DNA of 64,000 bases, from contig CP166615.1 of assembly GCA_041937175.2 (NCBI GenBank), positions 1,856,001 to 1,920,000 of the forward strand. The letters are read 5' to 3'. The translations under genes and the position numbers were made by a program. Positions 11,270-36,578 of the stretch are shown here, piece by piece (the stretch's first letter is position 1; each line of letters starts with the position of its first letter). The notes beneath the pieces are model-generated. The model searched no databases. It was given only the letters and a program-made list of their open reading frames with translations, and was not told the DNA's origin. Source of the stretch: Limnothrix sp. BL-A-16 (GTDB lineage: Bacteria; Cyanobacteriota; Cyanobacteriia; CACIAM-69d).

Positions 11270-11713
11270 ATGATTGAAGACTATGCCAGCGCCTTTCTGG
11301 AACGCGCTCAAGACCAGGCTGTGCTCGCCCAAGCCGATCGCCGAATTGCGGCTATGCATATGGGCGGTATCATGATTGAATGCCGCCTCAAAGCAGCGAT
11401 TCTCGGGCACTTCTCTGAAGATCGAAGAGATTGGGAACGGTCTAAAAATCCCAATGCTCAACATTGTGGCATTCGCAATCCGGGACATGACTTACATCAG
11501 GCACTGAATGAACTGGACAAGCTTGGAGTTGTAAAAGCATCTGATGATATTCAAGGTGCTTTAGATACTATTCAGAATCCTTTACCTGAATACTCATTTA
11601 TTAATCTTCGTTACTACGGTGGTTCCTTAGAAGCATCAGATTATGAAGACTGGGAAACCAAATATCAGGTTTTCAAAACTTGGTTGGATCAGCAATTGTT
11701 GTCATCTTCCTAA
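11270..11713 (+). CDS. HEPN-like helical protein (putative RNase toxin), copy 1
   Basis: Pattern A..(H/Y)..G..IECRLKA ... GHDL ... LRY typical of HEPN domains; 21 bp upstream of the large ATPase gene. Confidence 0.65.
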   Translation: MIEDYASAFLERAQDQAVLAQADRRIAAMHMGGIMIECRLKAAILGHFSEDRRDWERSKNPNAQHCGIRNPGHDLHQALNELDKLGVVKASDDIQGALDTIQNPLPEYSFINLRYYGGSLEASDYEDWETKYQVFKTWLDQQLLSSS

Positions 11714-11734: not shown

Positions 11735-14410
11735 ATGAACCAACAACCATTTAGTCCCTGGGATATTCAAAATATTTACCAACGTCTGAGAAATCGCTTT
11801 GTTGTCAGCTCATCAAAGGACTGGGTTCATCTATATCGATCGTCCTCTGGACTACTGAACATTACAGTTGTCAGTGATCAATTTCGCGGCATTAGTTATA
11901 GTGACCGACGCATTCAGGTCAATGAAATTGTTCAAAGTTCGACAGGTTCTCTCTCTCTCTACACGCAGGATGAAGCCAAAATTCTGGAAATAGAGAAGCC
12001 TGCTAGCGATCGCGTTCAATCAGTCAGAACTTGGCATGACTTAGCAATTTGGGCGCAAAATCCCCAGAACCACGGCGAGGTGCAAGAACGATCGCCCCGA
12101 TCGCCCCGTACTGTTGCTTTCTATTCCTTCAAAGGGGGTGTTGGCCGCACTACAGCCCTGATTCACGTGGCTTGGCTGTTAGTCAAACAAGGTAAAAAAG
12201 TTGTCGTAGTTGATCTAGATATTGAAGCACCAGGACTCAGCAAAGCTTTGGATCTGGATGACTTACCAGAAGTCGGCATTGTTGATTATTTCTATGAACG
12301 AGCTTATGCACCTGATGGAGCAGATTATGAAATCCAAATCGGCGATATCTTAGCAGAATACCGAGATCAGCAATTAGGCGATACCCGTGGTGGACGTTTC
12401 TTTGTTGTGCCCACAGGAAAACTCAATCTTGATTATTTAGCGAAAGTTGACGACTTAAAGGCTAATGCTTGGGTCAATGGCGATGAGTCTCTGTGGGATG
12501 TTTTTCTTCGAGATATCAAAAAACAGATTGATCCAGATTTGATTTTAGTAGATTCTCGAACTGGCTTGAATCAATGGGGCGCTTTTTCTCTGGTTCAAGC
12601 AGCAGATTCTGCCATTTTGGTGTTATTCCCTAATGCTCAAAATGCAGAGGGAGCAAAAATCTTAGTCCAATCTCTCGGCTCACTGGGCAAGCAGAACATT
12701 AATTTTGTCTTTTCACCAATTCCTAATTCAGACTCAAAAGCAATAGCCCAATCAATTCAGCTAGATCTGAATGGAATTATTAATCAATTTATTCCACCAG
12801 CCAGTAGCGATGAGCCAGATGATGAAGATCTAGCTAGCAGTGATGACTTGATTTGTATTGAATATCTCCTGCCGATCGCAGTCGCTCCTCACTATCCTGT
12901 TCATTCTGTCTTGGATTGGTATCAGCCGATCGCCAATTTAATCCTAAAAGACTCAAATTCTAGTGCATCTGTGTCAACTCAATTGCAACATGATCGCTGG
13001 AAAATCATTGAAGATCTCCGGTTTTCGGATGTTGATGCTGCCCAGGAACAGGCCAACCTCAGTCACATTTTTCAAAAGACATCCAGTTTCTATGATTTCC
13101 TAGATGATAAAGTCTGTTTAGTGACTGGTCGAAAAGGAACTGGCAAAACAGCTCTCTACTTTCTGTTTTTGAAACATTTTTCTGTTGCTCAAAAACTCAC
13201 TGATCGCCTGAATAATATTACCGTTCTCTCAGGGCATGGTATGTTATCTTCTGGTCGTCTGACTCAGAATGAATTTGATTTTATCCGTGGTGACTTAAGT
13301 ATATCTCAGGCAAGTTGGTTGGGGTTTTGGGCTGCCTATGCACTCTTCAGAATTATGTCTGATCATAACCAGACCTTGACTAGTCTTAGAAAAGATAAAT
13401 ACAAAGCTCTAAAAGATGGCTTCAGTACCGTAAAGAATCTCCAATTTGGCTCGGAGCATCAAGCGCTATTGCTTCAATGGTCTGAAAGCCGCGAGCTAAG
13501 ACCATTAATTTTTGATGCCTTAAAAGACATTAATAACTATCTCAAGAAGCAAGTCCAAAAAATTTGGCTGCTTTATGACAATCTAGATCAAGACTTGGCA
13601 GAAGCCAATAACTTGCGCAGTGATGCATTGATCGGACTCTTTAAATTAGTCCAAGAGTTTGATGCCAAAGAATTAACCAATCTTCGGATTAAAATTTTTC
13701 TCCGTGAAGATATTTGGGAAAGATTAATTTTTGACAATAGAAGTCATCTTCGCGGTCGATCCATAAAACTAGAGTGGAAGCGAGTTGACCTACTGCGCTT
13801 TGCTTATCGTCAGGTTATTCAATCAGAGAAGTTTAAAGCTCTGGTCAGTCAAGTTGTTCCCATCCCGGATCCTGATGCGGCAACAGAAGAGACGTTGGTT
13901 GAAGCCTTGAAGATCTTGTGGGGCGATCGCATTCGGTTGGGATCGCGTGGGAAATATCTCTACCGCTGGATTTACGATCGCCTGAGTGATACCAGTGGTG
14001 CAACTTATCCCCGTAGTTTGGTAGTGCTATTAGCTAGAGCGCGTGAACTGGAACTAGATAGTAAAGATGATCCCAAGTCCAAGCCACCAGTTGATCGCCT
14101 CTTTCGGAGCGGTTTTATGGCGCGTGCACTCGAAGAAGCCTCACGAGCGCGGTGTAACGAAATGCGCGAAGAATATGGCAATCTCTCAGCTTTTTTTAAT
14201 TCTTTATCGGGAAAAGACCCATTAATGAAAATCGAAGACCTACAGCAATGCTGGGAAAATTCTGCCCGAGAGATTGAGCCGAATTTTGAGCAGTTTGTGC
14301 AGCTTTTGAAGTCGATCGGGCTGGCGGAGTGGCGACCCAAAGATGAACGATATCGCTTTGCTGATCTTTATGTTTATGGGTTCAATATGAACAAAAAAGG
14401 GATGCGATAA
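11735..14410 (+). CDS. Multidomain dual P-loop protein: MNT/BolA-like N-terminus + ParA/MinD-like (KGGVGRTT) + second P-loop NTPase (GRKGTGKT), copy 1
   Basis: FYSFKGGVGRTT, VDLDIEAPG, LVDSRTG; then VTGRKGTGKT, LLYDNLD, IKIFLREDIW, YPR, C-terminal LKSIG...Y.F.DLY..G. Confidence 0.85.
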   Translation: MNQQPFSPWDIQNIYQRLRNRFVVSSSKDWVHLYRSSSGLLNITVVSDQFRGISYSDRRIQVNEIVQSSTGSLSLYTQDEAKILEIEKPASDRVQSVRTWHDLAIWAQNPQNHGEVQERSPRSPRTVAFYSFKGGVGRTTALIHVAWLLVKQGKKVVVVDLDIEAPGLSKALDLDDLPEVGIVDYFYERAYAPDGADYEIQIGDILAEYRDQQLGDTRGGRFFVVPTGKLNLDYLAKVDDLKANAWVNGDESLWDVFLRDIKKQIDPDLILVDSRTGLNQWGAFSLVQAADSAILVLFPNAQNAEGAKILVQSLGSLGKQNINFVFSPIPNSDSKAIAQSIQLDLNGIINQFIPPASSDEPDDEDLASSDDLICIEYLLPIAVAPHYPVHSVLDWYQPIANLILKDSNSSASVSTQLQHDRWKIIEDLRFSDVDAAQEQANLSHIFQKTSSFYDFLDDKVCLVTGRKGTGKTALYFLFLKHFSVAQKLTDRLNNITVLSGHGMLSSGRLTQNEFDFIRGDLSISQASWLGFWAAYALFRIMSDHNQTLTSLRKDKYKALKDGFSTVKNLQFGSEHQALLLQWSESRELRPLIFDALKDINNYLKKQVQKIWLLYDNLDQDLAEANNLRSDALIGLFKLVQEFDAKELTNLRIKIFLREDIWERLIFDNRSHLRGRSIKLEWKRVDLLRFAYRQVIQSEKFKALVSQVVPIPDPDAATEETLVEALKILWGDRIRLGSRGKYLYRWIYDRLSDTSGATYPRSLVVLLARARELELDSKDDPKSKPPVDRLFRSGFMARALEEASRARCNEMREEYGNLSAFFNSLSGKDPLMKIEDLQQCWENSAREIEPNFEQFVQLLKSIGLAEWRPKDERYRFADLYVYGFNMNKKGMR

Positions 14411-27814: not shown

Positions 27815-30211
27815 CTAGACCAACCGCTCCATGCGACGGGCGATCGCCTCGCTCCAACCTTCGGTCATGGTGGCCAGGGCTGCATCCAGGGCCGTTGCGC
27901 CATCCGGTGCGTTGATCACCAGCCGATCGCCCCCGACGGTTCCCAGTTGGGCCCAGTCGGAGCCGAGCTGTTCCGTCAGCCAGGTTTCAAACTCAGCCGC
28001 CCGATCGCCCGCCACGGACACCACGATCCGCGCGCCGCCTTCGCCAAACAGGGCCGCATCCCAGCGATCGCTCCCGGGGTCGATCGTCACCGTTGCGCCC
28101 AGGTTGCCGCTAATGCAGGACTCGGCCAGGGTGACGGCTAGGCCACCTTCGGCGCAGTCGTGGGCCGATCGAATCCAGCCCTGGCGAATCCCGTTGCGGC
28201 AAGCGGCTTGCACGGCTCGCTCCCGATCGAACTCCACCACGGGCGGCCGACCGGCGATCGTGTTGTGAATCGCCGCCAAATAATCTGACGCGCCCAGGGT
28301 TACGGGAGCTGTTGCCCCCAGCAGATAAATCCGATCGCCGGCCGACTGGAAGCCCTGGCCCGTCACCGTGGCGATGTCCTCCACCAAACCGACCATCCCC
28401 ACAACCGGTGTGGGATAGATCGATTGGGGTTTGCCCTCGGAATCTAGGGTTTCGTTGTAGAGCGACACGTTGCCGCCCGTGACCGGCGTGCCCAGTTCCC
28501 GGCAGGCATCGGCCAGGCCGCGGCAAGCATTGGCCAACTGCCAATAGCCCACGGGTTTTTCGGGGCTGCCGAAGTTGAGGTTATCGGTCACGGCCAGCGG
28601 TTCCGCTCCCACACAGGACAGGTTGCGGGCCGCCTCCGCCACCACGCCCAAAGCCCCTTGGTAGGGATCGAGGTACACATGGCGGGCGTTGCAATCCACC
28701 GTGGCCGCCACGCCCTTGGTGAAGGGGGTCGTCGCGTCGGTCACGAGTTGGGGCCGCAGCCGCACCACCGCCGCATCGGCCCCACCGGGCACAATCACCG
28801 TGTTGTTTTGTACCTGGTGATCGTACTGACGATAGACCCAGGATTTCGAGGCGATCGAGGGGGTTTCCAGCAGGCTTTGCAGCACCGCGCTCCAGGGGCG
28901 ATCGGGCAGTCCCGCCACGGAACAAGCAGGTAACGAGTCCGGCGACCAAGCCCAAGCCTGTTGCGCGTAGTCCGGTGCTTCCGCCATCAGTTCCCGGCGA
29001 TAGATCGGGGTGTTATCTGCCAGGGCCGTCGCCGGAATTTCCGCCGCGATCGCACCCTGGAACCGGATACGGACGATCGGCTCTTCGATCACTTCCCCGG
29101 CCACCACCGCTTGCAGGCCCCAACGGTGGAAGATGTCGATCAGTTCCTGTTCGCGGCCTTTGTGCGCCACAAACAACATCCGCTCCTGGGATTCCGACAG
29201 CAGATATTCGTAGGGAACCATCCCCGACTCGCGCACGGGGATTTTGTCGAGATCCAAATCGATGCCCACGCCGCCCTTGGCCGCCATTTCTGCCGTGGAG
29301 CAGGTGATACCCGCCGCGCCCATATCCTGGGCCGCCGCCACTGCACCGGTTTTGAAGGCTTCGAGGCAGGCTTCGATCAGGGATTTTTCGAGGAACGGAT
29401 CGCCCACCTGCACGGCCGGGCGATCGTCCATGGATTCATCGGTTAGCTCCGCGCTGGCAAAGCTGGCCCCACCCATGCCGTCGCGGCCGGTGGTTGACCC
29501 CACGTACAGCACCGGGTTGCCGATCCCATAGGCTCCCGCCTTGACGATTTCCGGCGTTTCCATCAGCCCCAGGGCCATGGCATTCACCAGCGGGTTGCCG
29601 CTGTAGGCGGGGTCAAAATAGACCTCACCGCCGACGGTCGGCACGCCCACGCAGTTGCCGTAGTGGGAAATGCCGGCCACCACCCCTTCAAACAGGCGGC
29701 GGTTACGCGCGTCATCCAGGGAGCCAAACCGCAGGGCATTGAGAATGGCGATCGGGCGGGCCCCCATGGTGAAGATGTCCCGCAGGATGCCGCCCACGCC
29801 GGTCGCCGCCCCCTGGAAGGGTTCCACGGCGGACGGGTGGTTGTGGGATTCGATCTTGAAGGCCAGGTGCAGCCCATCGCCGAGATCCACCACGCCAGCG
29901 TTTTCGCCGGGGCCCACGAGGATGCGCGGACCGCTGGTGGGAAATTGGCTAAGCAGGGGGCGAGAATTCTTGTAGCAGCAGTGTTCCGACCACATCACGC
30001 CAAACATCCCCAGTTCGGCTTTGTTGGGGTGGCGGCCCAGTCGATTCACAATATCGACGTATTCATCGGGCTTGATGCCTTCGGCGGTGATTTCAGCGAT
30101 CGGGAAGGGTGCGGATTCGAGAACGGTTTCGGGGGTTGACACGGCTTTGGTGGCGCGATTCAGAAAGCGCCCTAATTGTACAACCGAGGCGATCGGCGGG
30201 CCCGCCCCCAC
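27815..30211 (-). CDS. purL: Phosphoribosylformylglycinamidine synthase subunit PurL (start probably GTG near 30139)
   Basis: [57 protein letters not shown]. Confidence 0.97.
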
Positions 30212-30267
30212 CCCCAGGGGCGATTGACACTATCCCTCAGTCAACACTGTGCTAACACGTAGCTTTT

Positions 30268-32910
30268 TCAGTCGCTAATATTTGTTTTGCGGCGATAAAC
30301 CATTTTTAATCCAGACTTAAACAGTCCACCAACTCGCCATTGTCCTGGATATCGCACTCGGTCTTCAAAAATCCCCCAATCCTTCATTTGCTGCAAAACT
30401 TCCCTGATCTTTAGCTCTGAAAGTTCAGTTCTTTTAGCCAACTCATTTACACGGTCATCAACCTTGAAAGGCGAATCTAAACCTTGAAAAGCTTCTAGCA
30501 GTTGCCTCACCTTATCCTTATTTTTTTCAGGATCTTCGTCCAGATCCAAGATATTAGATAGCTCATCTCGGACTTGCGTCATGTACTGTACGGCAGCATC
30601 TTCATGAGCAGTAAAAACTAACAAAGAATTGATCTTATCCCCATCAAGCTGCTTACCTTGAAAATCAAAGCTGCGCCAATCTCTATTGGATGATGGATCA
30701 GCAATGATGTCGAGGAAGAGTTCGTAAACCCTTGGATAGTAGCTTAATTGAGATTCATAACCACTGGCTGTGTCGGCAAAATAAGTCTTCAGAAATGTCA
30801 GCATTTTAATGCTGCTACGTTTAAGCTTGGGTGGAAAAATTTCTAATATCAGCTCTTCACATTCTTGTTCAGAAACCTCTGCTCTCTTTAGCTCACTGCT
30901 TCGTGCTTCTAGTTTTCTGACAGTCTCGGGAAAATGATCTTTGTACCAAGGCTTCTTGGAAATTCTCGACAGTAAAAAATTGAAAATCTCTTGAGTCCCC
31001 CATTCTAGGCGTAACTGCTTGCTGGTGCGAGCTTGTTGTTCAAGATTTTCAGCACTATACCGGCGTAAATCATCTCGAATAAAGAGCTTGATCCTGATTA
31101 CTTCGCTCCACCTAATTTCACTGGTGATAGAGCGTACAAATTCAAACAAAGCTTCCGTGTAGCTACGAATTAGTTTGGCATTGAAGGCAATCTCAACACT
31201 GTCGATCAGAAAAGTGCGAGACTCACGAGTTAAATCTAGTAATTTGATTTGAGTGATCAATTCATCAATAGTTGATGATCGCTTTGGCAGAGATTTACTA
31301 TTTTCAATGCGTTGCTTGAACTTTAATTCAAGCTTAGAGCGTGATGTTTTCTGGTCTTCAATTAAAGTTTCCAGTCCTGAAATGAGCAAGTCATACCAGA
31401 AATTGATTGGATTGTCTTTGTAAAATTCTGCTGCTCTAGCCTCTTGAATGATTGGGGAGCTAGCTTGTATACCTTGTGAAGTTCGATCTTCTGCATCAAC
31501 TAGTATGGGCTGACCCAAGCCTGACTTTGCTATTTCTGTAACCAAGCGAGTTTTACCAGTACCTTTCTTGCCAAAAATGTAAGTTGTTTCGTTACCAGAG
31601 CGTAGCAATTCACGGAAGTTCTTAGTTTGCACTAATGACCCTCCATCACTCGATCCAGAGAGAGTTAGGACTGGCATTGAGGATTTATCTTGGCTCTGAT
31701 CCTGAAGGTCTTTCTTGCCTAACAAATCCAGAACACTACGAATATTATTAATTGATTCTTTTGTTTGATCAGCAAGTTCACTAATTTCCGGCATTTGACC
31801 ACGATGATTCTCGCGAAAAGCAGAATCATAGGGCCACATAATCCAATGATCTTCAAGCAGCTCAGCAGAAAGATTGCCAAATTCTTCAGAATCGGGGTTC
31901 CTGTTTTCAACGTCTGCCAGCACCCCTAAGAGTTCTTCTTTTTGATCAGCAGTTCGGCTCTGATAGGAATCTTTTGTTTCATTGTCAGACTTAAATGAAA
32001 CAAAGCAACCTCTATCGGCAGAGTTTTCTCGCAAAAGAGCCTGAAAGAAGTCTTTTGCTAATCGCCATTGGTAATCGAGTCGATTGCAAATAACAGTAGG
32101 GCCTTTTAAGGTTGAGATCCAAGGTAGGGGAGTTGCAGAAATTCCCGATCGATGATCACAAAGCACTATGTCATATGAATGTTCTTTTGCAACTTTCTCT
32201 ACTTCCCTTGCCAGGCGTTCTGTCAGCAAGGAATCCATTGATAGACGTAAAGGCAATACAGCAGCTTCGATTTCATATTCTGATATGGCTGGGCGACAAA
32301 AAATCGCGTCAACCTGACCAACACTGGAAAAAACCTGTGACGGCTCAACATCGACTCCAGAACGACCAAAGCCAAGCAGCGTACTACGAATTGATTCGTT
32401 AGGTGCTCCGTAGAGAACATCCAATGAAGGCGCTTCTGTATCTAAATCTACTACCAACACTTTCCAGCCATCATTGGCTAAAGCTTTGGATAGCATCACC
32501 AGAATAGTAGATCTTGCCTGTCCACCCTTGTAGCCATAAAAATGAACTACTTTTAGTCGATCATCAGCTTCTTCTCCTGTGTCTAGGACTAGTTGATGAA
32601 GAAGCTCCTGTGTCAAGGCAAACGCGTAATGATTTCCCCGCTCCCGAAGTCGGCTGCTATATTCATTTTCAAATTCATTTGGTGATAGAAAGTCAATAGA
32701 AGCAGATGTATAGTAGAGTGTTTCATAAATAATAGATGTACTAGACTGAATTTTATTTGCCACAATCACATCGCGCTGGTCTGGTGGGACTGTGGAAAAC
32801 TCTTCAGAAATGCAAGCAAGGTATAACGAAGGATGACGATAAACCACCTTCAGGCTATCTAAGCCATAGGCTTCTTGTAGTTTTTCAATCAAACTTTTTA
32901 GTGAAAGCAT
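30268..32910 (-). CDS. Multidomain dual P-loop protein: MNT/BolA-like N-terminus + degenerate ParA/MinD-like (KGGQARST) + second P-loop NTPase (GKKGTGKT), copy 2
   Basis: FYGYKGGQARST, VDLDTEAPS, LCDHRSG; IFGKKGTGKT, FLIDSVE, IKLFIRDDL, YYPR, C-terminal KDWGIFE...W.V..LF..GL; colinear with 11735-14410. Confidence 0.85.
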   Translation of the reverse strand: MLSLKSLIEKLQEAYGLDSLKVVYRHPSLYLACISEEFSTVPPDQRDVIVANKIQSSTSIIYETLYYTSASIDFLSPNEFENEYSSRLRERGNHYAFALTQELLHQLVLDTGEEADDRLKVVHFYGYKGGQARSTILVMLSKALANDGWKVLVVDLDTEAPSLDVLYGAPNESIRSTLLGFGRSGVDVEPSQVFSSVGQVDAIFCRPAISEYEIEAAVLPLRLSMDSLLTERLAREVEKVAKEHSYDIVLCDHRSGISATPLPWISTLKGPTVICNRLDYQWRLAKDFFQALLRENSADRGCFVSFKSDNETKDSYQSRTADQKEELLGVLADVENRNPDSEEFGNLSAELLEDHWIMWPYDSAFRENHRGQMPEISELADQTKESINNIRSVLDLLGKKDLQDQSQDKSSMPVLTLSGSSDGGSLVQTKNFRELLRSGNETTYIFGKKGTGKTRLVTEIAKSGLGQPILVDAEDRTSQGIQASSPIIQEARAAEFYKDNPINFWYDLLISGLETLIEDQKTSRSKLELKFKQRIENSKSLPKRSSTIDELITQIKLLDLTRESRTFLIDSVEIAFNAKLIRSYTEALFEFVRSITSEIRWSEVIRIKLFIRDDLRRYSAENLEQQARTSKQLRLEWGTQEIFNFLLSRISKKPWYKDHFPETVRKLEARSSELKRAEVSEQECEELILEIFPPKLKRSSIKMLTFLKTYFADTASGYESQLSYYPRVYELFLDIIADPSSNRDWRSFDFQGKQLDGDKINSLLVFTAHEDAAVQYMTQVRDELSNILDLDEDPEKNKDKVRQLLEAFQGLDSPFKVDDRVNELAKRTELSELKIREVLQQMKDWGIFEDRVRYPGQWRVGGLFKSGLKMVYRRKTNISD

Positions 32911-32920
32911 AGAATTATTC

Positions 32921-33400
32921 TTAACTCAGCAATGAAAGTTTTCTCAAATGGTTGAGGATGTTTTGAGCTGTTCTCAAAGCATTCTCTAAGTCTTGCTCTG
33001 TCGTTTTGCCAGGTCGTCCATTGTGTATGTCAGACTCATGCTGTAAATAACGAATGTATGGATATTTTTGAATGTAAGCTTTCTGCGATTCTCCCTTGCC
33101 CCCTGTGCAGTACAAGTTATCAAAGTCATTTTTGAGGTTTACTGCATCGGCTCTTAGTTGCTTAATGATTTCTCGTTTTCGATAGTCAGTTTTGAATAAT
33201 GGATCAGAATCAGGATCAGAAAACAAGTTTTGAATGCCAGTTGTTATATCATGCCCAATTTGTGGCCAGGTCTTTGTCTTGTCTTTTAAACCGTCTTTGA
33301 CGGCTAGCTCAATAATGACCAGGGAGCAGTATAGATCGAGCAACTTTTTCGAGGTTTCTGACCCTGCTAGGAAGACTTGAGTATTGTACTTATGCGTCAT
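32921..33400 (-). CDS. HEPN-like helical protein, copy 2
   Basis: Y..L..IELAVKD ... GHDI ... YPYIRYLQH; 10 bp upstream of the ATPase gene, same arrangement as copy 1. Confidence 0.6.
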   Translation of the reverse strand: MTHKYNTQVFLAGSETSKKLLDLYCSLVIIELAVKDGLKDKTKTWPQIGHDITTGIQNLFSDPDSDPLFKTDYRKREIIKQLRADAVNLKNDFDNLYCTGGKGESQKAYIQKYPYIRYLQHESDIHNGRPGKTTEQDLENALRTAQNILNHLRKLSLLS

Positions 33401-33620
33401 TGAGTCCGGTGCTTAGAAAAAGTTTTAAATCTTGATTTTTTGAAAAACTGTTTGATGCTGTCTATTCTAGACTAATTGACAATTTATGGATCTTGATTGG
33501 CGTTAACCATTCAAATTTTAAACGCAATCCATGGTTGTTGCTGCTTTAGAAAAGCAATTCAGACAGCGCTCATTTTACAACCAGGCGATCGCGGGGCGCT
33601 GTCTGTTTTGGCTACGGGAG

Positions 33621-33842
33621 CTAGAGGCGCGATCGGGACAGGATGCGGACGACTTGATCGGGTTGGCCTGTGGGGACGGCGGGACTCCAGAGAATGGTTT
33701 CGCCGATGCCGCAGAGGTGCAGGCTTTTGACCAGGCGATCGACCCACTCGCTTTGACCCACGAGGATGATCCGGTTGCAGCGATCGTCCAGATGGTTCAG
33801 GCGTTCCAGAATAGGGCGATCGCCATTACTTGGGTTAGTCAT
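33621..33842 (-). CDS. Small conserved cyanobacterial protein (73 aa)
   Basis: ILVG....V...V..LH..G..E...WS...PTG.P..V..IL.R, a pattern I recall from small cyanobacterial ORFs lying beside XRE genes. Confidence 0.65.
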   Translation of the reverse strand: MTNPSNGDRPILERLNHLDDRCNRIILVGQSEWVDRLVKSLHLCGIGETILWSPAVPTGQPDQVVRILSRSRL

Positions 33843-33861
33843 ATCAATTGAGTGCTGCGAA

Positions 33862-33898
33862 TTGACAACAAATTCACTGTAATCGATCAAGTTGTCAA
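33862..33898. promoter_or_regulatory. Inverted repeat (candidate operator) in the divergent intergenic region
   Basis: TTGACAAC-N21-GTTGTCAA between the small ORF and the XRE array. Confidence 0.4.
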
Positions 33899-33934
33899 CT
33901 CGCAACCTTTACGCAATTTCCCGAGTTTGACACC

Positions 33935-34207
33935 ATGAGCGGCATGGGAAAAGCCGGGAAAGCATTACGCGAAACGTTACAGCAGCACAACCTCACGCAA
34001 AATCGTTTAGCCGTGACGATGGGAATTGCGCGCGGCACGATGAGCCATTGGGTGGCGGAAACGCGCGACCCGACGGCGGAAGCCATCCCAACTATTGTGG
34101 ATGCCCTAGAGCAGTTGAACCCGGAAGCCGCTCGAACATTTATTGAGATGTATTTGGGCCGGGCGATCGGGGAGCTGTCACCCAAGCAATTTGGGCAAGA
34201 AAATTGA
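33935..34207 (+). CDS. XRE/Cro-family HTH regulator, copy 1 (unit starts at ATG 33944)
   Basis: ALRETL..HNLTQNRLAVTMGIARGTMSHWV.ETRDP. Confidence 0.85.
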   Translation: MSGMGKAGKALRETLQQHNLTQNRLAVTMGIARGTMSHWVAETRDPTAEAIPTIVDALEQLNPEAARTFIEMYLGRAIGELSPKQFGQEN

Positions 34208-34471
34208 ATGGGAAAAGCCGGAAAAGCACTACGCACAACGTTGCAGCAATACAACATCGCCCAAAATCGCTTAGCGGTGACGATGGGCATCAATCGCGCC
34301 ACTATTAGCCATTGGTTCGCAGAAACGCGCGACCCAACAGCAGAATCGATTCCAGCGATTGTGGATGCGCTGGAGCAGTTGAATCCTGAGGCGGCGCAGG
34401 CTTTTGTTGAGGCCTATTTGGGCCGGGCGATCGGGGAGCTTTCACCCAAGCAATTTGGGCAAGAAAATTGA
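34208..34471 (+). CDS. XRE/Cro-family HTH regulator, copy 2
   Basis: 264-bp tandem unit; NIAQNRLAVTMGINRATISHWF.ETRDP; TGA-ATG abutted to copy 1. Confidence 0.85.
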   Translation: MGKAGKALRTTLQQYNIAQNRLAVTMGINRATISHWFAETRDPTAESIPAIVDALEQLNPEAAQAFVEAYLGRAIGELSPKQFGQEN

Positions 34472-34639
34472 ATGGGAAAAGCCGGGAAAGCACTACGCAC
34501 AACGTTGCAGCAATACAACATCGCCCAAAATCGCTTAGCGGTGACGATGGGTATCAATCGCGCCACCATTAGCCATTGGTTCGCAGAAACGCGCGACCCA
34601 ACAGCAGAATCGATTGCTCCCACGGTTCTGAAGATTTAG
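34472..34639 (+). pseudogene. XRE HTH copy 3, 3'-truncated (55 aa)
   Basis: Nearly identical to copy 2 up to ...GAATCGATT, then diverges and stops at TAG 34637-34639 next to the gyrB stop. Confidence 0.75.
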
Positions 34640-34640
34640 G

Positions 34641-36578
34641 CTAAATATCCAGGTCAGTGAGGTTCAGTTTGGCCCCGTAGGTTTCAATAAATTCCCGGCG
34701 CGGAGCCACCCGATCGCCCATCAAGATTGTGAAGATCCGATCGGCCTCAGCCGCATCATCGATTTCCACCCGTTTCATGGTGCGGGTTTCCGGGTTCATG
34801 GTGGTGTCCCAAAGCTGATTGGGCATCATTTCACCCAAACCTTTGAACCGTTGAATGTTGTAGTTGGCATTGGCTGGGAAGCCCGCCAAAATTTGCTGCA
34901 ACTCCCGATCGCTGTAGCAATATTGATGATTGCGGCCGCGCTCCACTTTGTATAGCGGTGGGCAAGCAATATAGATGTGTCCTTGCTCCACCAGCTCCCG
35001 TTGATAGCGATAGAAAAAGGTCAGCAGCAGGGTGCGAATGTGGGCCCCGTCCACGTCCGCATCGGTCATCAACACCACCCGGTGATAGCGCAGTTGGGAA
35101 ACATCAAATTCCTCGCCTTTGATGCCTAATCCCAGGGCGGAAATCAGCGATTGAATTTCAGTGTTCTTATAGATCTTGGCATCATCGGTTTTTTCGATGT
35201 TGAGGATTTTTCCGCGCAGGGGCAAAATGGCTTGGAACCGGCGATTTCGCCCTTGCTTGGCGGAACCTCCTGCCGAGTCGCCTTCCACAATAAAAATTTC
35301 TGATTCGGACGGATCCTTCGAGCTGCAATCGGCTAACTTACCTGGCAAGGGCGACGATTCCAGCACTGACTTGCGGCGCACCAATTCCCGGGCCCGGCGA
35401 GCCGCTTCGGCCGCATTAAAGGCCTGGATTGCCTTTTCTAAGATGGAGTCAGCCACGCCGGGCCGGAACTCCAAATATTCCGTGAAGACTTCCCCCACCA
35501 GGGAATCCACAATGCCGCGCACCTCGGGGTTACCGAGTTTGGTTTTGGTTTGTCCTTCAAATTCTGGATCGGGCACTTTGACGGAAATAATCGCCGTCAG
35601 CCCTTCGCGAATATGTTCGCCACCTAGGTTGGCATCGCCATCTTTTAGTTTGTTGCGCTTGCGGGCGATCGCGTTCATGGTGCGGGTCAAAACGGCTTTC
35701 AACCCTTCCAGGTGGGTTCCGCCATCCACGGTGCGAATGTTGTTGGCAAACCCGAATAGGTTGTCCGTATAGGCATCGATCGACCATTGCATGGCCACTT
35801 CCACATGCACCCCGTCGCGCTCCCCTTGCACGTAGAGAATTTCCTCATGGAGGGGCAGCCGATCGCGGTTGATGTAGGCCACATATTCCCGAATGCCGCC
35901 TTCGTAGCAGTAGGTTTCAACCTTGGGCTGCTCGGTGCGCAATAGCTCCAGCCGGTGATCGCTGAAGGTAATCTTCACGCCCGCATTCAGATAGGCCAAC
36001 TCCCGTAGCCGACTGGCGAGGGTGGCGTAGTCAAATTCTGTACCGGTGATGAAAATTTCGCGATCGGGCAAAAAGGTGACCCGCGTGCCCGTTTGGGAAT
36101 CGTCGCTGGGTTCGCTGGTCAAGGGGCCTTGGGGAATCCCTCGGCTGTAGCGTTGAACGTACCGTTGACTCAGGCGCTTGACTTCAACAATTACTTCTTC
36201 CGAGAGGGCATTCACCACGGACACGCCCACGCCGTGGAGACCGCCGGATACCTTATAGCCACCGCCGCCGAATTTGCCGCCCGCGTGCAGCACGGTCATC
36301 ACGGTTTCGAGGGCGGATTTGCCGGTTTGGGGATGAATATCAACGGGGATGCCGCGGCCGTCGTCGGTGACGGTGACGGAGCCGTTGGCATTCAGATCCA
36401 CTTCGATGTGGGTGCAATAACCAGCGAGGGCTTCATCGATCGAGTTGTCCACCACCTCGTAAACTAGATGATGGAGACCGCGCGGCCCGGTGGAGCCGAT
36501 GTACATTCCCGGTCGCTTGCGGACAGGTTCAAGCCCTTCAAGAACCTGAATTTGATCTGCCCCGTAGTTGCTGGTCAT
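34641..36578 (-). CDS. gyrB: DNA gyrase subunit B
   Basis: [65 protein letters not shown]. Confidence 0.98.

Follow-up and report, generated by a model that had tools for sequence, protein, structure and literature searches.

A diverged second copy of a HEPN-ParA two-gene module, probably a conflict system, between purL and gyrB of Limnothrix sp. BL-A-16

A 64,000-nucleotide stretch of the genome of the cyanobacterium Limnothrix sp. BL-A-16 (contig CP166615.1, positions 1,856,001 to 1,920,000 of the forward strand; hereafter the window) carries two copies of a module in which a small gene is followed by a gene for a large protein with two ATPase domains. The subject of this report is the second of them, copy 2, which encodes proteins of 159 and 880 amino acids (aa). 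We consider it probable, at roughly 70%, that copy 2 represents an intact conflict module of two genes, gained by horizontal transfer and directed against phages or other mobile elements, with the large protein as sensor and switch and the small protein, predicted to adopt the HEPN fold, as effector. This reading rests on the full-length homology of the large proteins of the two copies, an invariant Lys-to-Arg replacement in a Walker A motif, residues like those of an alternative HEPN active site and a conserved gene pair to which no third gene belongs, together with a patchy spread incongruent with the organismal tree, a location in islets of low GC content, matches to PADLOC models and a good fit to the description of the HINPO systems (Li, Burroughs and Aravind, bioRxiv preprint of 22 October 2026, 10.64898/2026.10.19.760177).

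A sequence-only reading of the window had presented copy 2 as a highly diverged counterpart of copy 1 with the same domain order and a series of matching motifs, and our results support it. The coordinates and open reading frames (ORFs) were confirmed, the small ORF of copy 2 ending 10 bp upstream of the 880-aa ORF and the pair mirroring that of copy 1; the copies, placed about 16 kb apart by that reading, are separated by 15.9 kb, with copy 1 on the + and copy 2 on the - strand; and the translations contain every motif pair that it quoted. BLASTP aligned the two large proteins at 31% over 143 aa (E 1e-6), with further short segments at the second Walker A motif and at KLFIRDDL, and a profile of 27 relatives of the copy 2 protein (alignment A1) matched copy 1 in hhalign over 746 columns, residues 40-886 (99.3%, E 2e-20). 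Both proteins match NF047398 (AAA_KGGVGR, "KGGVGR-motif variant AAA ATPase") and NF047389 (ATPase_Sll1717, "P-loop ATPase, Sll1717 family"), copy 1 with 167 bits (E 5.7e-49) and 148 bits (E 4.6e-43), above the curated NCBIfam cut-offs of 90 and 75 bits, and copy 2 with 70.7 bits (E 2e-19) and 61.7 bits (E 6.9e-17). Both models are specific and are matched in one and the same order by the two proteins, whose similarity therefore goes beyond generic P-loop motifs; a similarity limited to such motifs is what would have refuted the earlier reading. By these comparisons the large proteins of copies 1 and 2 are homologous over their full length.

As judged from its sequence, each large protein contains a ParA/MinD-like domain, in which the Walker A Lys is replaced by Arg, and another P-loop ATPase, a member of the Sll1717 family. 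In copy 2 the NF047398 match covers residues 120-275, a region that also matches Pfam AAA_31 and CbiA, and the best matches of the ParA-like domain in PDB profile searches are MinD, Mrp/NBP35, FleN and ParA. The invariant residues of A1 include HF-GYKGGQ-RS, D-D-EAPSL, DHR-G and G-KGTGKTR; the replacing Arg, R133, is found in 27 of 27 sequences, and the EAPS motif (E159-A160-P161-S162) in copy 2 and all 27. The second ATPase is apparently intact, with a Walker A and a Walker-B-like motif, and its residues G447, K449-R455, D570 and E573 are likewise invariant. Its likeness to ORC/CDC6 is confined in copy 2 to weak AAA_16 and ATPase_2 matches, and sequence and profile searches of the PDB with the C-terminal half of the protein gave no significant match. 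Residues ~795-850 are tentatively assigned as helix-turn-helix (HTH)-like from weak Pfam matches (HTH_Mga 0.0019, GntR 0.1, Sigma70_r3 0.14).

BLASTP found no match between the small proteins of the two copies, and a word-index homologue search with that of copy 2 returned only the query, so that its relatives were gathered by synteny, as the ORFs immediately upstream of the large genes. phmmer searches with the 159-aa protein matched 37 of the 38 other upstream ORFs of copy 2 type. We aligned 37 small proteins of this type (A2, from which the spurious rows L085 and L087 were dropped) and 28 of copy 1 type (A3). hhalign aligned A2 with A3 over 120 columns (87.3%, E 3.8e-6), superposing the E-x3-K, His and Arg-Tyr columns of the two families; the reversed control gave E 0.38 and 20 column shuffles gave E values of at least 0.085. 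An AlphaFold2 (AF2) model of the copy 2 protein (predicted local distance difference test score, pLDDT, 93.3) has HEPN domains as its best structural matches, and the copy 1 protein also models as a HEPN-like bundle; the structures matched by the small proteins are 2hsb, 1wwp, 7ae2 and 8xdj. Profiles and models together indicate that the two small proteins are distantly homologous and share the HEPN fold; small ORFs without structural relationship would have refuted the sequence-only reading. Among the A3 members, 16 of 28 match Pfam HEPN (PF05168) and 27 of 28 the PDC-M28A model of PADLOC, and searches of PDB sequences with either small-protein profile gave no significant match. A comparison of A2 and A3 with 17 DUF86/HepT-type neighbours of cyanobacterial genes for minimal nucleotidyltransferases (MNTs) yielded 0.8% and 0.4% in hhalign, a result that is uninformative because the copy 1 family, positive for Pfam HEPN, fails in it too. 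Against 1.84 billion cluster representatives the A2 profile found 253 proteins at E <=1e-3, 227 of them at E <=1e-10, and the 150 matches listed are 115-227 aa long.

The residues that these families conserve resemble a catalytic site. F10, Y24, E31, H50, P114, R117, Y118 and D124 are invariant in A2, with K35 present in at least 90% of the sequences, and E37, C38, K41, H73, R114 and Y115 are invariant in A3, at a mean column identity of 30-34% in the two alignments. Both families thus combine an Ex3[KR] motif with a His located N-terminal to the Arg, E31-x3-K35 and H50 in copy 2 and E37-x3-K41 and H73 in copy 1. As set out in the available part of Anantharaman et al. 2013 (PMC3710099), HEPN domains carry an Ex3[KR] motif, and in AF0298 (2hsb) and the AbiV-type HEPNs the motif His is lost and a second conserved His further towards the N terminus marks an alternative active site. 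The invariant polar residues of the small proteins, read from the alignments, form a comparable active-site-like set.

The two genes are kept together across wide phylogenetic distances. Relatives were examined in 52 loci of copy 2 type, found with A1, and in 30 loci of copy 1 type from an NF047398 search of 401 cyanobacterial genomes. By clustering, the small and the large gene are paired in 46 of the 52 copy 2-type loci as well as in the window, in cyanobacteria, Acidobacteriota, Verrucomicrobiota, Spirochaetota, Pseudomonadota and others, and no other gene is common to more than 6 of the 52. For the copy 1 type, a large ORF was found in 28 loci (L014 and L043 could not be scored), and in 26 of these it is adjoined by an ORF of 110-200 aa, the exceptions being L038 and L039. 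Across relatives the junction of the two genes is mostly an overlap of 4 bp or 1 bp. The pair is, on this evidence from gene order, conserved and translationally coupled across phyla, in keeping with the earlier proposal of a real functional unit.

Within the cyanobacterial sample, KGGVGR domains above the cut-off occur in 52 of the 401 genomes, 18 of which (counted from the result table) have two or more, so that several copies per genome are common and ordinary for this class; the domain occurs in fused forms (~900 aa) and in split ones (~460 aa). The copy 2 type is rare in this sample: among the matches listed, two genomes, the window's own and one other (G240), have a frame of ~860-885 aa scoring ~70 bits. 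Elsewhere the type is widespread, with at least 219 homologues of the copy 2 large protein at E <=1e-3 among 8000 scored candidates. It is 85-87% identical to three proteins, one of them named Limnothrix sp. FACHB-1083, ~42% identical to proteins of Dolichospermum, Prochlorothrix and Snowella, and 30-36% identical to those of Acidobacteriota, Verrucomicrobiota and proteobacteria.

Several observations bear on how the modules were acquired. In a quickly built maximum-likelihood tree of ParA domains (67 rows, 227 columns, with four ParA-like housekeeping ORFs from this genome as outgroup), supported by SH-like approximate likelihood-ratio tests (SH-aLRT) only and with long branches whose possible joins were flagged, a long branch (SH-aLRT 96) sets all 35 copy 2-type rows apart and copy 1 lies in a cyanobacterial clade of nine rows (SH-aLRT 99). 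The cyanobacterial rows of the copy 2 clade nest among Acidobacteriota, incongruently with the organismal phylogeny. A third module, copy 3, was found outside the window, 1.1 Mb away, by a search of the whole genome (4.56 Mb, two contigs); it stands alone on a very long branch (4.2), and its placement is unsure. The GC content of the modules is 0.429 (copy 1) and 0.409 (copy 2) vs 0.548 in the rest of the window, values inside both copies ranging over 0.38-0.47 vs 0.52-0.66 in their flanks, and their GC at third codon positions (GC3) is 0.34-0.41 vs 0.66-0.77 in purL, gyrB and chlH. At the DNA level copies 1 and 2 share no more than chance similarity (best blastn segment 24 nt, E 0.008). The separate lineages in the ParA tree and the GC islets support independent horizontal acquisitions rather than duplication within the genome. 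The suggestions of the sequence-only reading that obvious DNA similarity is missing and that the module was acquired more than once are upheld, and we infer that this genome acquired the same device three times, once for each of its paralogous modules. The only genome of the same family (G220) has a gyrB 86% identical, with purL not adjacent and no module, so that the boundaries of the insertion cannot be set by comparison.

The mechanism that we favour would run as follows. The C-terminal ATPase and the HTH-like stretch of the large protein, possibly with its N-terminal domain, would recognise nucleic acid of an invader or a nucleotide signal; the ParA domain would pass the signal on by dimerising or multimerising in an ATP-dependent way; and release or activation of the HEPN protein, probably a metal-independent RNase using the alternative site made up of Ex3K, the relocated His (H50) and the motif Arg (R117-Y118), would arrest the infected cell. 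A complex prediction for the copy 2 HEPN protein with residues 1-330 of the large protein scored 0.00, which is evidence neither way.

A number of results weigh against this reading. Neither Pfam HEPN nor PDC-M28A matches any of the 37 A2 members, the copy 2 small protein itself included in the case of PDC-M28A, and the large protein of copy 2 stays under both NCBIfam cut-offs (70.7 vs 90 and 61.7 vs 75 bits). The canonical HEPN motif Rx4-6H is absent from both small-protein families: copy 2 has R117-x3-H121, with a spacing of 3 and an H121 that is not conserved in A2, and in A3 no His follows the Arg of R114-Y115. Given this absence, the RNase activity of the HEPN protein is an inference. The neighbours of the modules in the window (purL, gyrB, chlH and a cyanase-like ORF) are housekeeping genes, so that there is no defence-island context within it. 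A full-text literature search for KGGVGR, Sll1717 and PDC-M28 found no paper, and no experiments on any member of the module class were found in the literature, PDC-M28 and HINPO being predictions.

The N-terminal domain of the large proteins matters for how such a system might sense its trigger. We aligned 36 N-terminal domains from the copy 1 and copy 2 clades (A4). The only Pfam family matched more than once was BolA (PF01722), with 7 of the 36 members (best 4.1e-4, all below the gathering score as far as shown). In hhalign, A4 matched a profile of 30 cyanobacterial BolA ORFs over 79 columns (87.8%, E 3.3e-6), vs 0.2% (E 0.28) for 30 MNT ORFs, 0.3% (E 0.22) for the reversed BolA control and E values of at least 0.19 for 20 column-shuffled BolA controls. 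The match to BolA held for the two copy 1 subgroups taken singly (A: 74.7%, E 2.6e-5; B: 72.4%, E 3.3e-5) and was lower for the copy 2 clade alone (22%, E 9.6e-4, over 73 collinear columns), whose domains match those of copy 1 subgroup B (92.2%, E 5.8e-7). From these profiles the N-terminal domain of the fused large proteins looks BolA-like and not nucleotidyltransferase-like. The ~150-aa N-terminal domain of split-type ParA proteins (~460 aa; L015, L017, L022 and L023) is unlike both the BolA (0.4%, E 0.15) and the MNT profile (0.1%, E 0.4) and matches that of the fused form only where it adjoins ParA, so that no single family accounts for the N-terminal domains of this class of systems. A PDB sequence search with the N-domain profile gave no significant match, and a protein-atlas search with residues 1-118 of the copy 2 protein no usable one.

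A fuller version of the favoured reading, which we put forward tentatively and think somewhat doubtful as a whole, takes the copy 2 clade as a distinct immune family of strictly two genes that extends over several phyla. Its marks would be KGGQ[AG]RS, EAPS and a HEPN family peculiar to it, with ~250 clusters at 50% identity. Its N-terminal sensor would derive from BolA, its HEPN protein would cut RNA by means of the relocated His, and the three modules of this genome would not cross-react and would answer to different triggers, a difference that the sequence-only reading had also surmised for the two copies of the window.

The main question within the favoured reading is whether the HEPN protein or a ParA assembly is the primary effector, and the most serious alternative, unlikely in our estimate, gives the second answer. 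It keeps the same module and makes a polymer of the ParA ATPase the effector, as in the HINPO model of the preprint (10.64898/2026.10.19.760177): the ORC/CDC6-like ATPase would sense DNA and nucleate ParA assemblies that block the invader, leaving the HEPN protein to act as a suicide effector in reserve or as an RNA-binding adaptor without catalysis. The lost Rx4-6H motif, the canonical one, fits a non-catalytic HEPN, and inactive HEPNs are described in another ParA system in the available part of that preprint. Yet Glu, Lys, His, Arg and Tyr (with Asp in copy 2) are kept throughout 37 and 28 highly diverged sequences, and invariant polar residues at so low a mean identity are what one expects of an active site and not of a surface that only binds; they also match the alternative HEPN site as described in PMC3710099. 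Moreover, from what is generally known of P-loop proteins, the Lys-to-Arg replacement makes the ParA domain unlikely to work as a vigorous ATPase motor.

Improbable in our view is a toxin-antitoxin-like addiction module that stabilises its islet, with the HEPN protein as toxin, the large protein as neutraliser and no part in phage defence. A small HEPN gene coupled to a partner does resemble the HEPN-MNT pairs, of which the genome seems to hold many, as suggested by its 19 matches to Pfam NTP_transf_2 (PF01909, minimal nucleotidyltransferase), and a place in islets of foreign GC content would suit an addiction module. A double ATPase of 850-900 aa, however, far exceeds the needs of a neutraliser, its N-terminal domain has no profile similarity to MNT (0.2%, as above), and the islets hold no other mobile-element genes to be stabilised; toxin-antitoxin and abortive-infection roles are in any case not mutually exclusive. 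A housekeeping or metabolic role, such as iron-sulfur cluster trafficking or cellular positioning, could be read from the fusion of a BolA-like domain (by profile) to an Mrp/MinD-like ATPase and from the Mrp/NBP35-type iron-sulfur carriers and MinD among the best PDB matches, but it is highly improbable for a family that exceeds the cut-off in only 52 of 401 cyanobacterial genomes, often in several copies, lies in low-GC islets with a HEPN partner gene (46 of 52 loci), has no CxxC ligand motif among the invariant A1 columns and occurs in a genome that retains an ordinary BolA gene separately.

Table 1. Coordinates of the modules, their domains and other features. Positions are those of the window unless a contig or locus is named.
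Feature	Location	Strand	Description
Copy 2 small gene	32921..33400	-	159-aa HEPN-fold protein (predicted from ORF, A2 alignment, AF2 model and structural matches)
Copy 2 large gene	30268..32910	-	880 aa: N-terminal domain, ParA-like ATPase, second P-loop ATPase, HTH-like C-terminal end
Copy 2 N-terminal domain	32566..32910	-	Residues ~1-115; BolA-like by profile comparison
Copy 2 ParA/MinD-like (SIMIBI) domain	31951..32553	-	YKGGQARST (R133 replaces Walker A Lys), DLDTEAPS, CDHRSG
Copy 2 second P-loop ATPase	30541..31629	-	Sll1717 family, PDC-M28C-like; Walker A GKKGTGKTR, Walker-B-like LIDSVE; AAA_16 weak
Copy 2 C-terminal stretch	30361..30528	-	Tentatively HTH-like; residues ~795-850, weak Pfam matches
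Low-GC islet with copy 2	30212..33500	.	Between purL and XRE-HTH repeat + gyrB
purL	27815-30211	-	Neighbour of copy 2 islet
XRE-type HTH repeat	33935-34614		264-nt unit, ~2.5 repeats
First HTH_3 ORF of repeat	33935-34207	+	~88 aa
Second HTH_3 ORF of repeat	34208-34471	+	~88 aa
Copy 1 small gene	11270..11713	+	147-aa HEPN-fold protein (predicted; PDC-M28A)
Copy 1 large gene	11735..14410	+	891 aa, same four-part architecture: FKGGVGRTT, DLDIEAPG, DSRTG, GRKGTGKT
Copy 1 N-terminal domain	11735-12100	+	Equivalent to that of copy 2
Copy 3 module	Contig C1 of the same genome (G000:C1:3008839-3012177; L013:4840-8178)		Outside the window
Copy 3 small ORF	L013:4840..5310		156 aa, HEPN-like
Copy 3 large ORF	L013:5326..8178		950 aa, KGGVGR + Sll1717 type
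Uma2-family genes	L013:1014-2143	-	Two adjoining genes, putative restriction endonuclease-like
Weak Sll1717-family ORF	G000:C1:1592628-1596266 (L005:593-3639)		E 4.9e-5
Weak Sll1717-family ORF	G000:C1:740907-744440 (L004)		E 3e-6
Copy 2-type pair of L096	4161-7117	+	130 + 854 aa; other cyanobacterium
Copy 1-type pair of L096	10554-13678	-	135 + 915 aa
KGGVGR genes of G056	G056:C152:78485-84476		Split-type (458-aa frame) and fused (910-aa frame); other cyanobacterium

GC content at the copy 2 islet is 0.38-0.44 inside and 0.52-0.66 outside. Between copy 2 and gyrB, the copies of the 264-nt repeat are 80-82% alike and encode two tandem XRE-type HTH_3 proteins and a partial third copy; the repeat has a native-like GC content (0.52-0.54) and is not kept beside relatives of copy 2. 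A scan of 29900-34700 for promoters and terminators did not rise above shuffled sequence (6 vs 6.9 and 3 vs 5.3), and a repeat search found no convincing flanking direct repeats or target-site duplications around the copy 2 islet. The 17 sequencing runs listed for this DNA are all DNA metagenomes, with no RNA run among them.

Copy 3 lies in an islet of ~0.42 GC directly after the leucyl-tRNA synthetase gene (leuS), its small ORF 15 bp upstream of the large one. The small ORF bears E-C-x-L-K, T-H-D-L and L-R-Y, as read by eye from its translation; the large ORF scored 143.7 bits with NF047398 and, in the genome search, 51.6 bits with NF047389. Two Uma2-family genes are located just upstream of leuS. 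Two more ORFs of the genome match the Sll1717 family weakly and may be other NTPase-based conflict genes; one of them is a P-loop protein of 774+ aa with a 220-aa ORF before it. In other cyanobacteria, a copy 2-type and a copy 1-type pair were found in convergent orientation, the 3.4 kb that part them holding genes for GAF and CobQ-like amidotransferase proteins (L096), and a split-type and a fused KGGVGR gene, both over the cut-off, lie ~5 kb from each other on one contig (G056), so that paralogous modules are clustered there as well.

That ParA-type ATPases form recurrent cores of prokaryotic immunity is a very recent proposal made on computational grounds (10.64898/2026.10.19.760177, as far as the available part of the preprint goes). 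Three intact and highly diverged natural versions in one genome offer a panel for asking what is sensed, whether the HEPN proteins are interchangeable, and whether a ParA protein with Arg for Lys is a switch rather than a motor. Current detection models miss the widespread copy 2 branch, for which M28A gives no match and both NCBIfam scores fall below the cut-off, and a BolA-like N-terminal domain, if real, would change the proposed sensing mechanism. Since the overall architecture was described before and genomes often carry several copies, these findings extend known work and do not amount to a new kind of system.

Copy 2 is a divergent clade member of the architecture already catalogued as PDC-M28 and as HINPO, both of them computational descriptions only. 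Of the PDC-M28 models in PADLOC-DB v2, copy 1 fits all three (A 3.9e-6, B 1.6e-38, C 5e-27), the last two within a single protein; the large protein of copy 2 fits B (9.2e-17) and C (4.4e-5), weakly, and its small protein does not fit A. The HINPO systems are predicted, in the available part of the preprint (10.64898/2026.10.19.760177), to have an upstream PA-HEPN1 gene, then ParA, with an ORC/CDC6-STAND AAA+ gene downstream or fused; the AAA+ part would sense DNA, ParA multimerise and HEPN serve as a backup suicide effector. Shared with the modules described here are the upstream HEPN gene, a ParA with Arg for the Walker A Lys, the fused second ATPase, enrichment in cyanobacteria and other multicellular bacteria, and the predicted immune role. 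The immune ParA branch ConB2 is characterised there by Arg for the second Walker A Lys and by a PG motif downstream of sensor-1; copy 2 departs from the latter with EAPS, copies 1 and 3 having EAPG, and its Walker A reads KGGQARS and not KGGVGR. The preprint calls the N-terminal domain of the HINPO ParA an inactive Pol-beta nucleotidyltransferase on structural grounds, whereas our profiles make it BolA-like with no MNT-type similarity; that assignment may have been made on split forms.

Other known systems share single traits with the modules. Like them, the HEPN-MNT (HepT/MntA) type VII toxin-antitoxin systems, with the NT-associated HEPN-T proteins described in PMC3710099, place a small standalone HEPN beside a regulator and have Ex3[KR] and, as in AF0298, a relocated His. 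The partner here is a double ATPase of ~870 aa and not a minimal nucleotidyltransferase, and RX4HXY is lacking. The NTPase of the anticodon nucleases PrrC and RloC is of the ABC type. As in these nucleases, where a P-loop NTPase controls a HEPN RNase acting as a suicide or second-line effector (PMC3710099), such control is predicted here; PrrC and RloC carry NTPase and HEPN in one polypeptide with a canonical Rx4-6H, whereas the present modules have separate proteins, SIMIBI and AAA+/STAND-like NTPases and a non-canonical motif. ParA-HeH subtype 4 (ParA, HeH, HEPN), reported in the available part of the preprint (10.64898/2026.10.19.760177) to be antiphage in Salmonella with a HEPN that is a tRNA anticodon nuclease, likewise couples an immune ParA to a HEPN effector gene, but its ParA is of branch ConB1 and keeps the Lys in Walker A, its sensor is encoded by a HeH gene, and it lacks a second ATPase.

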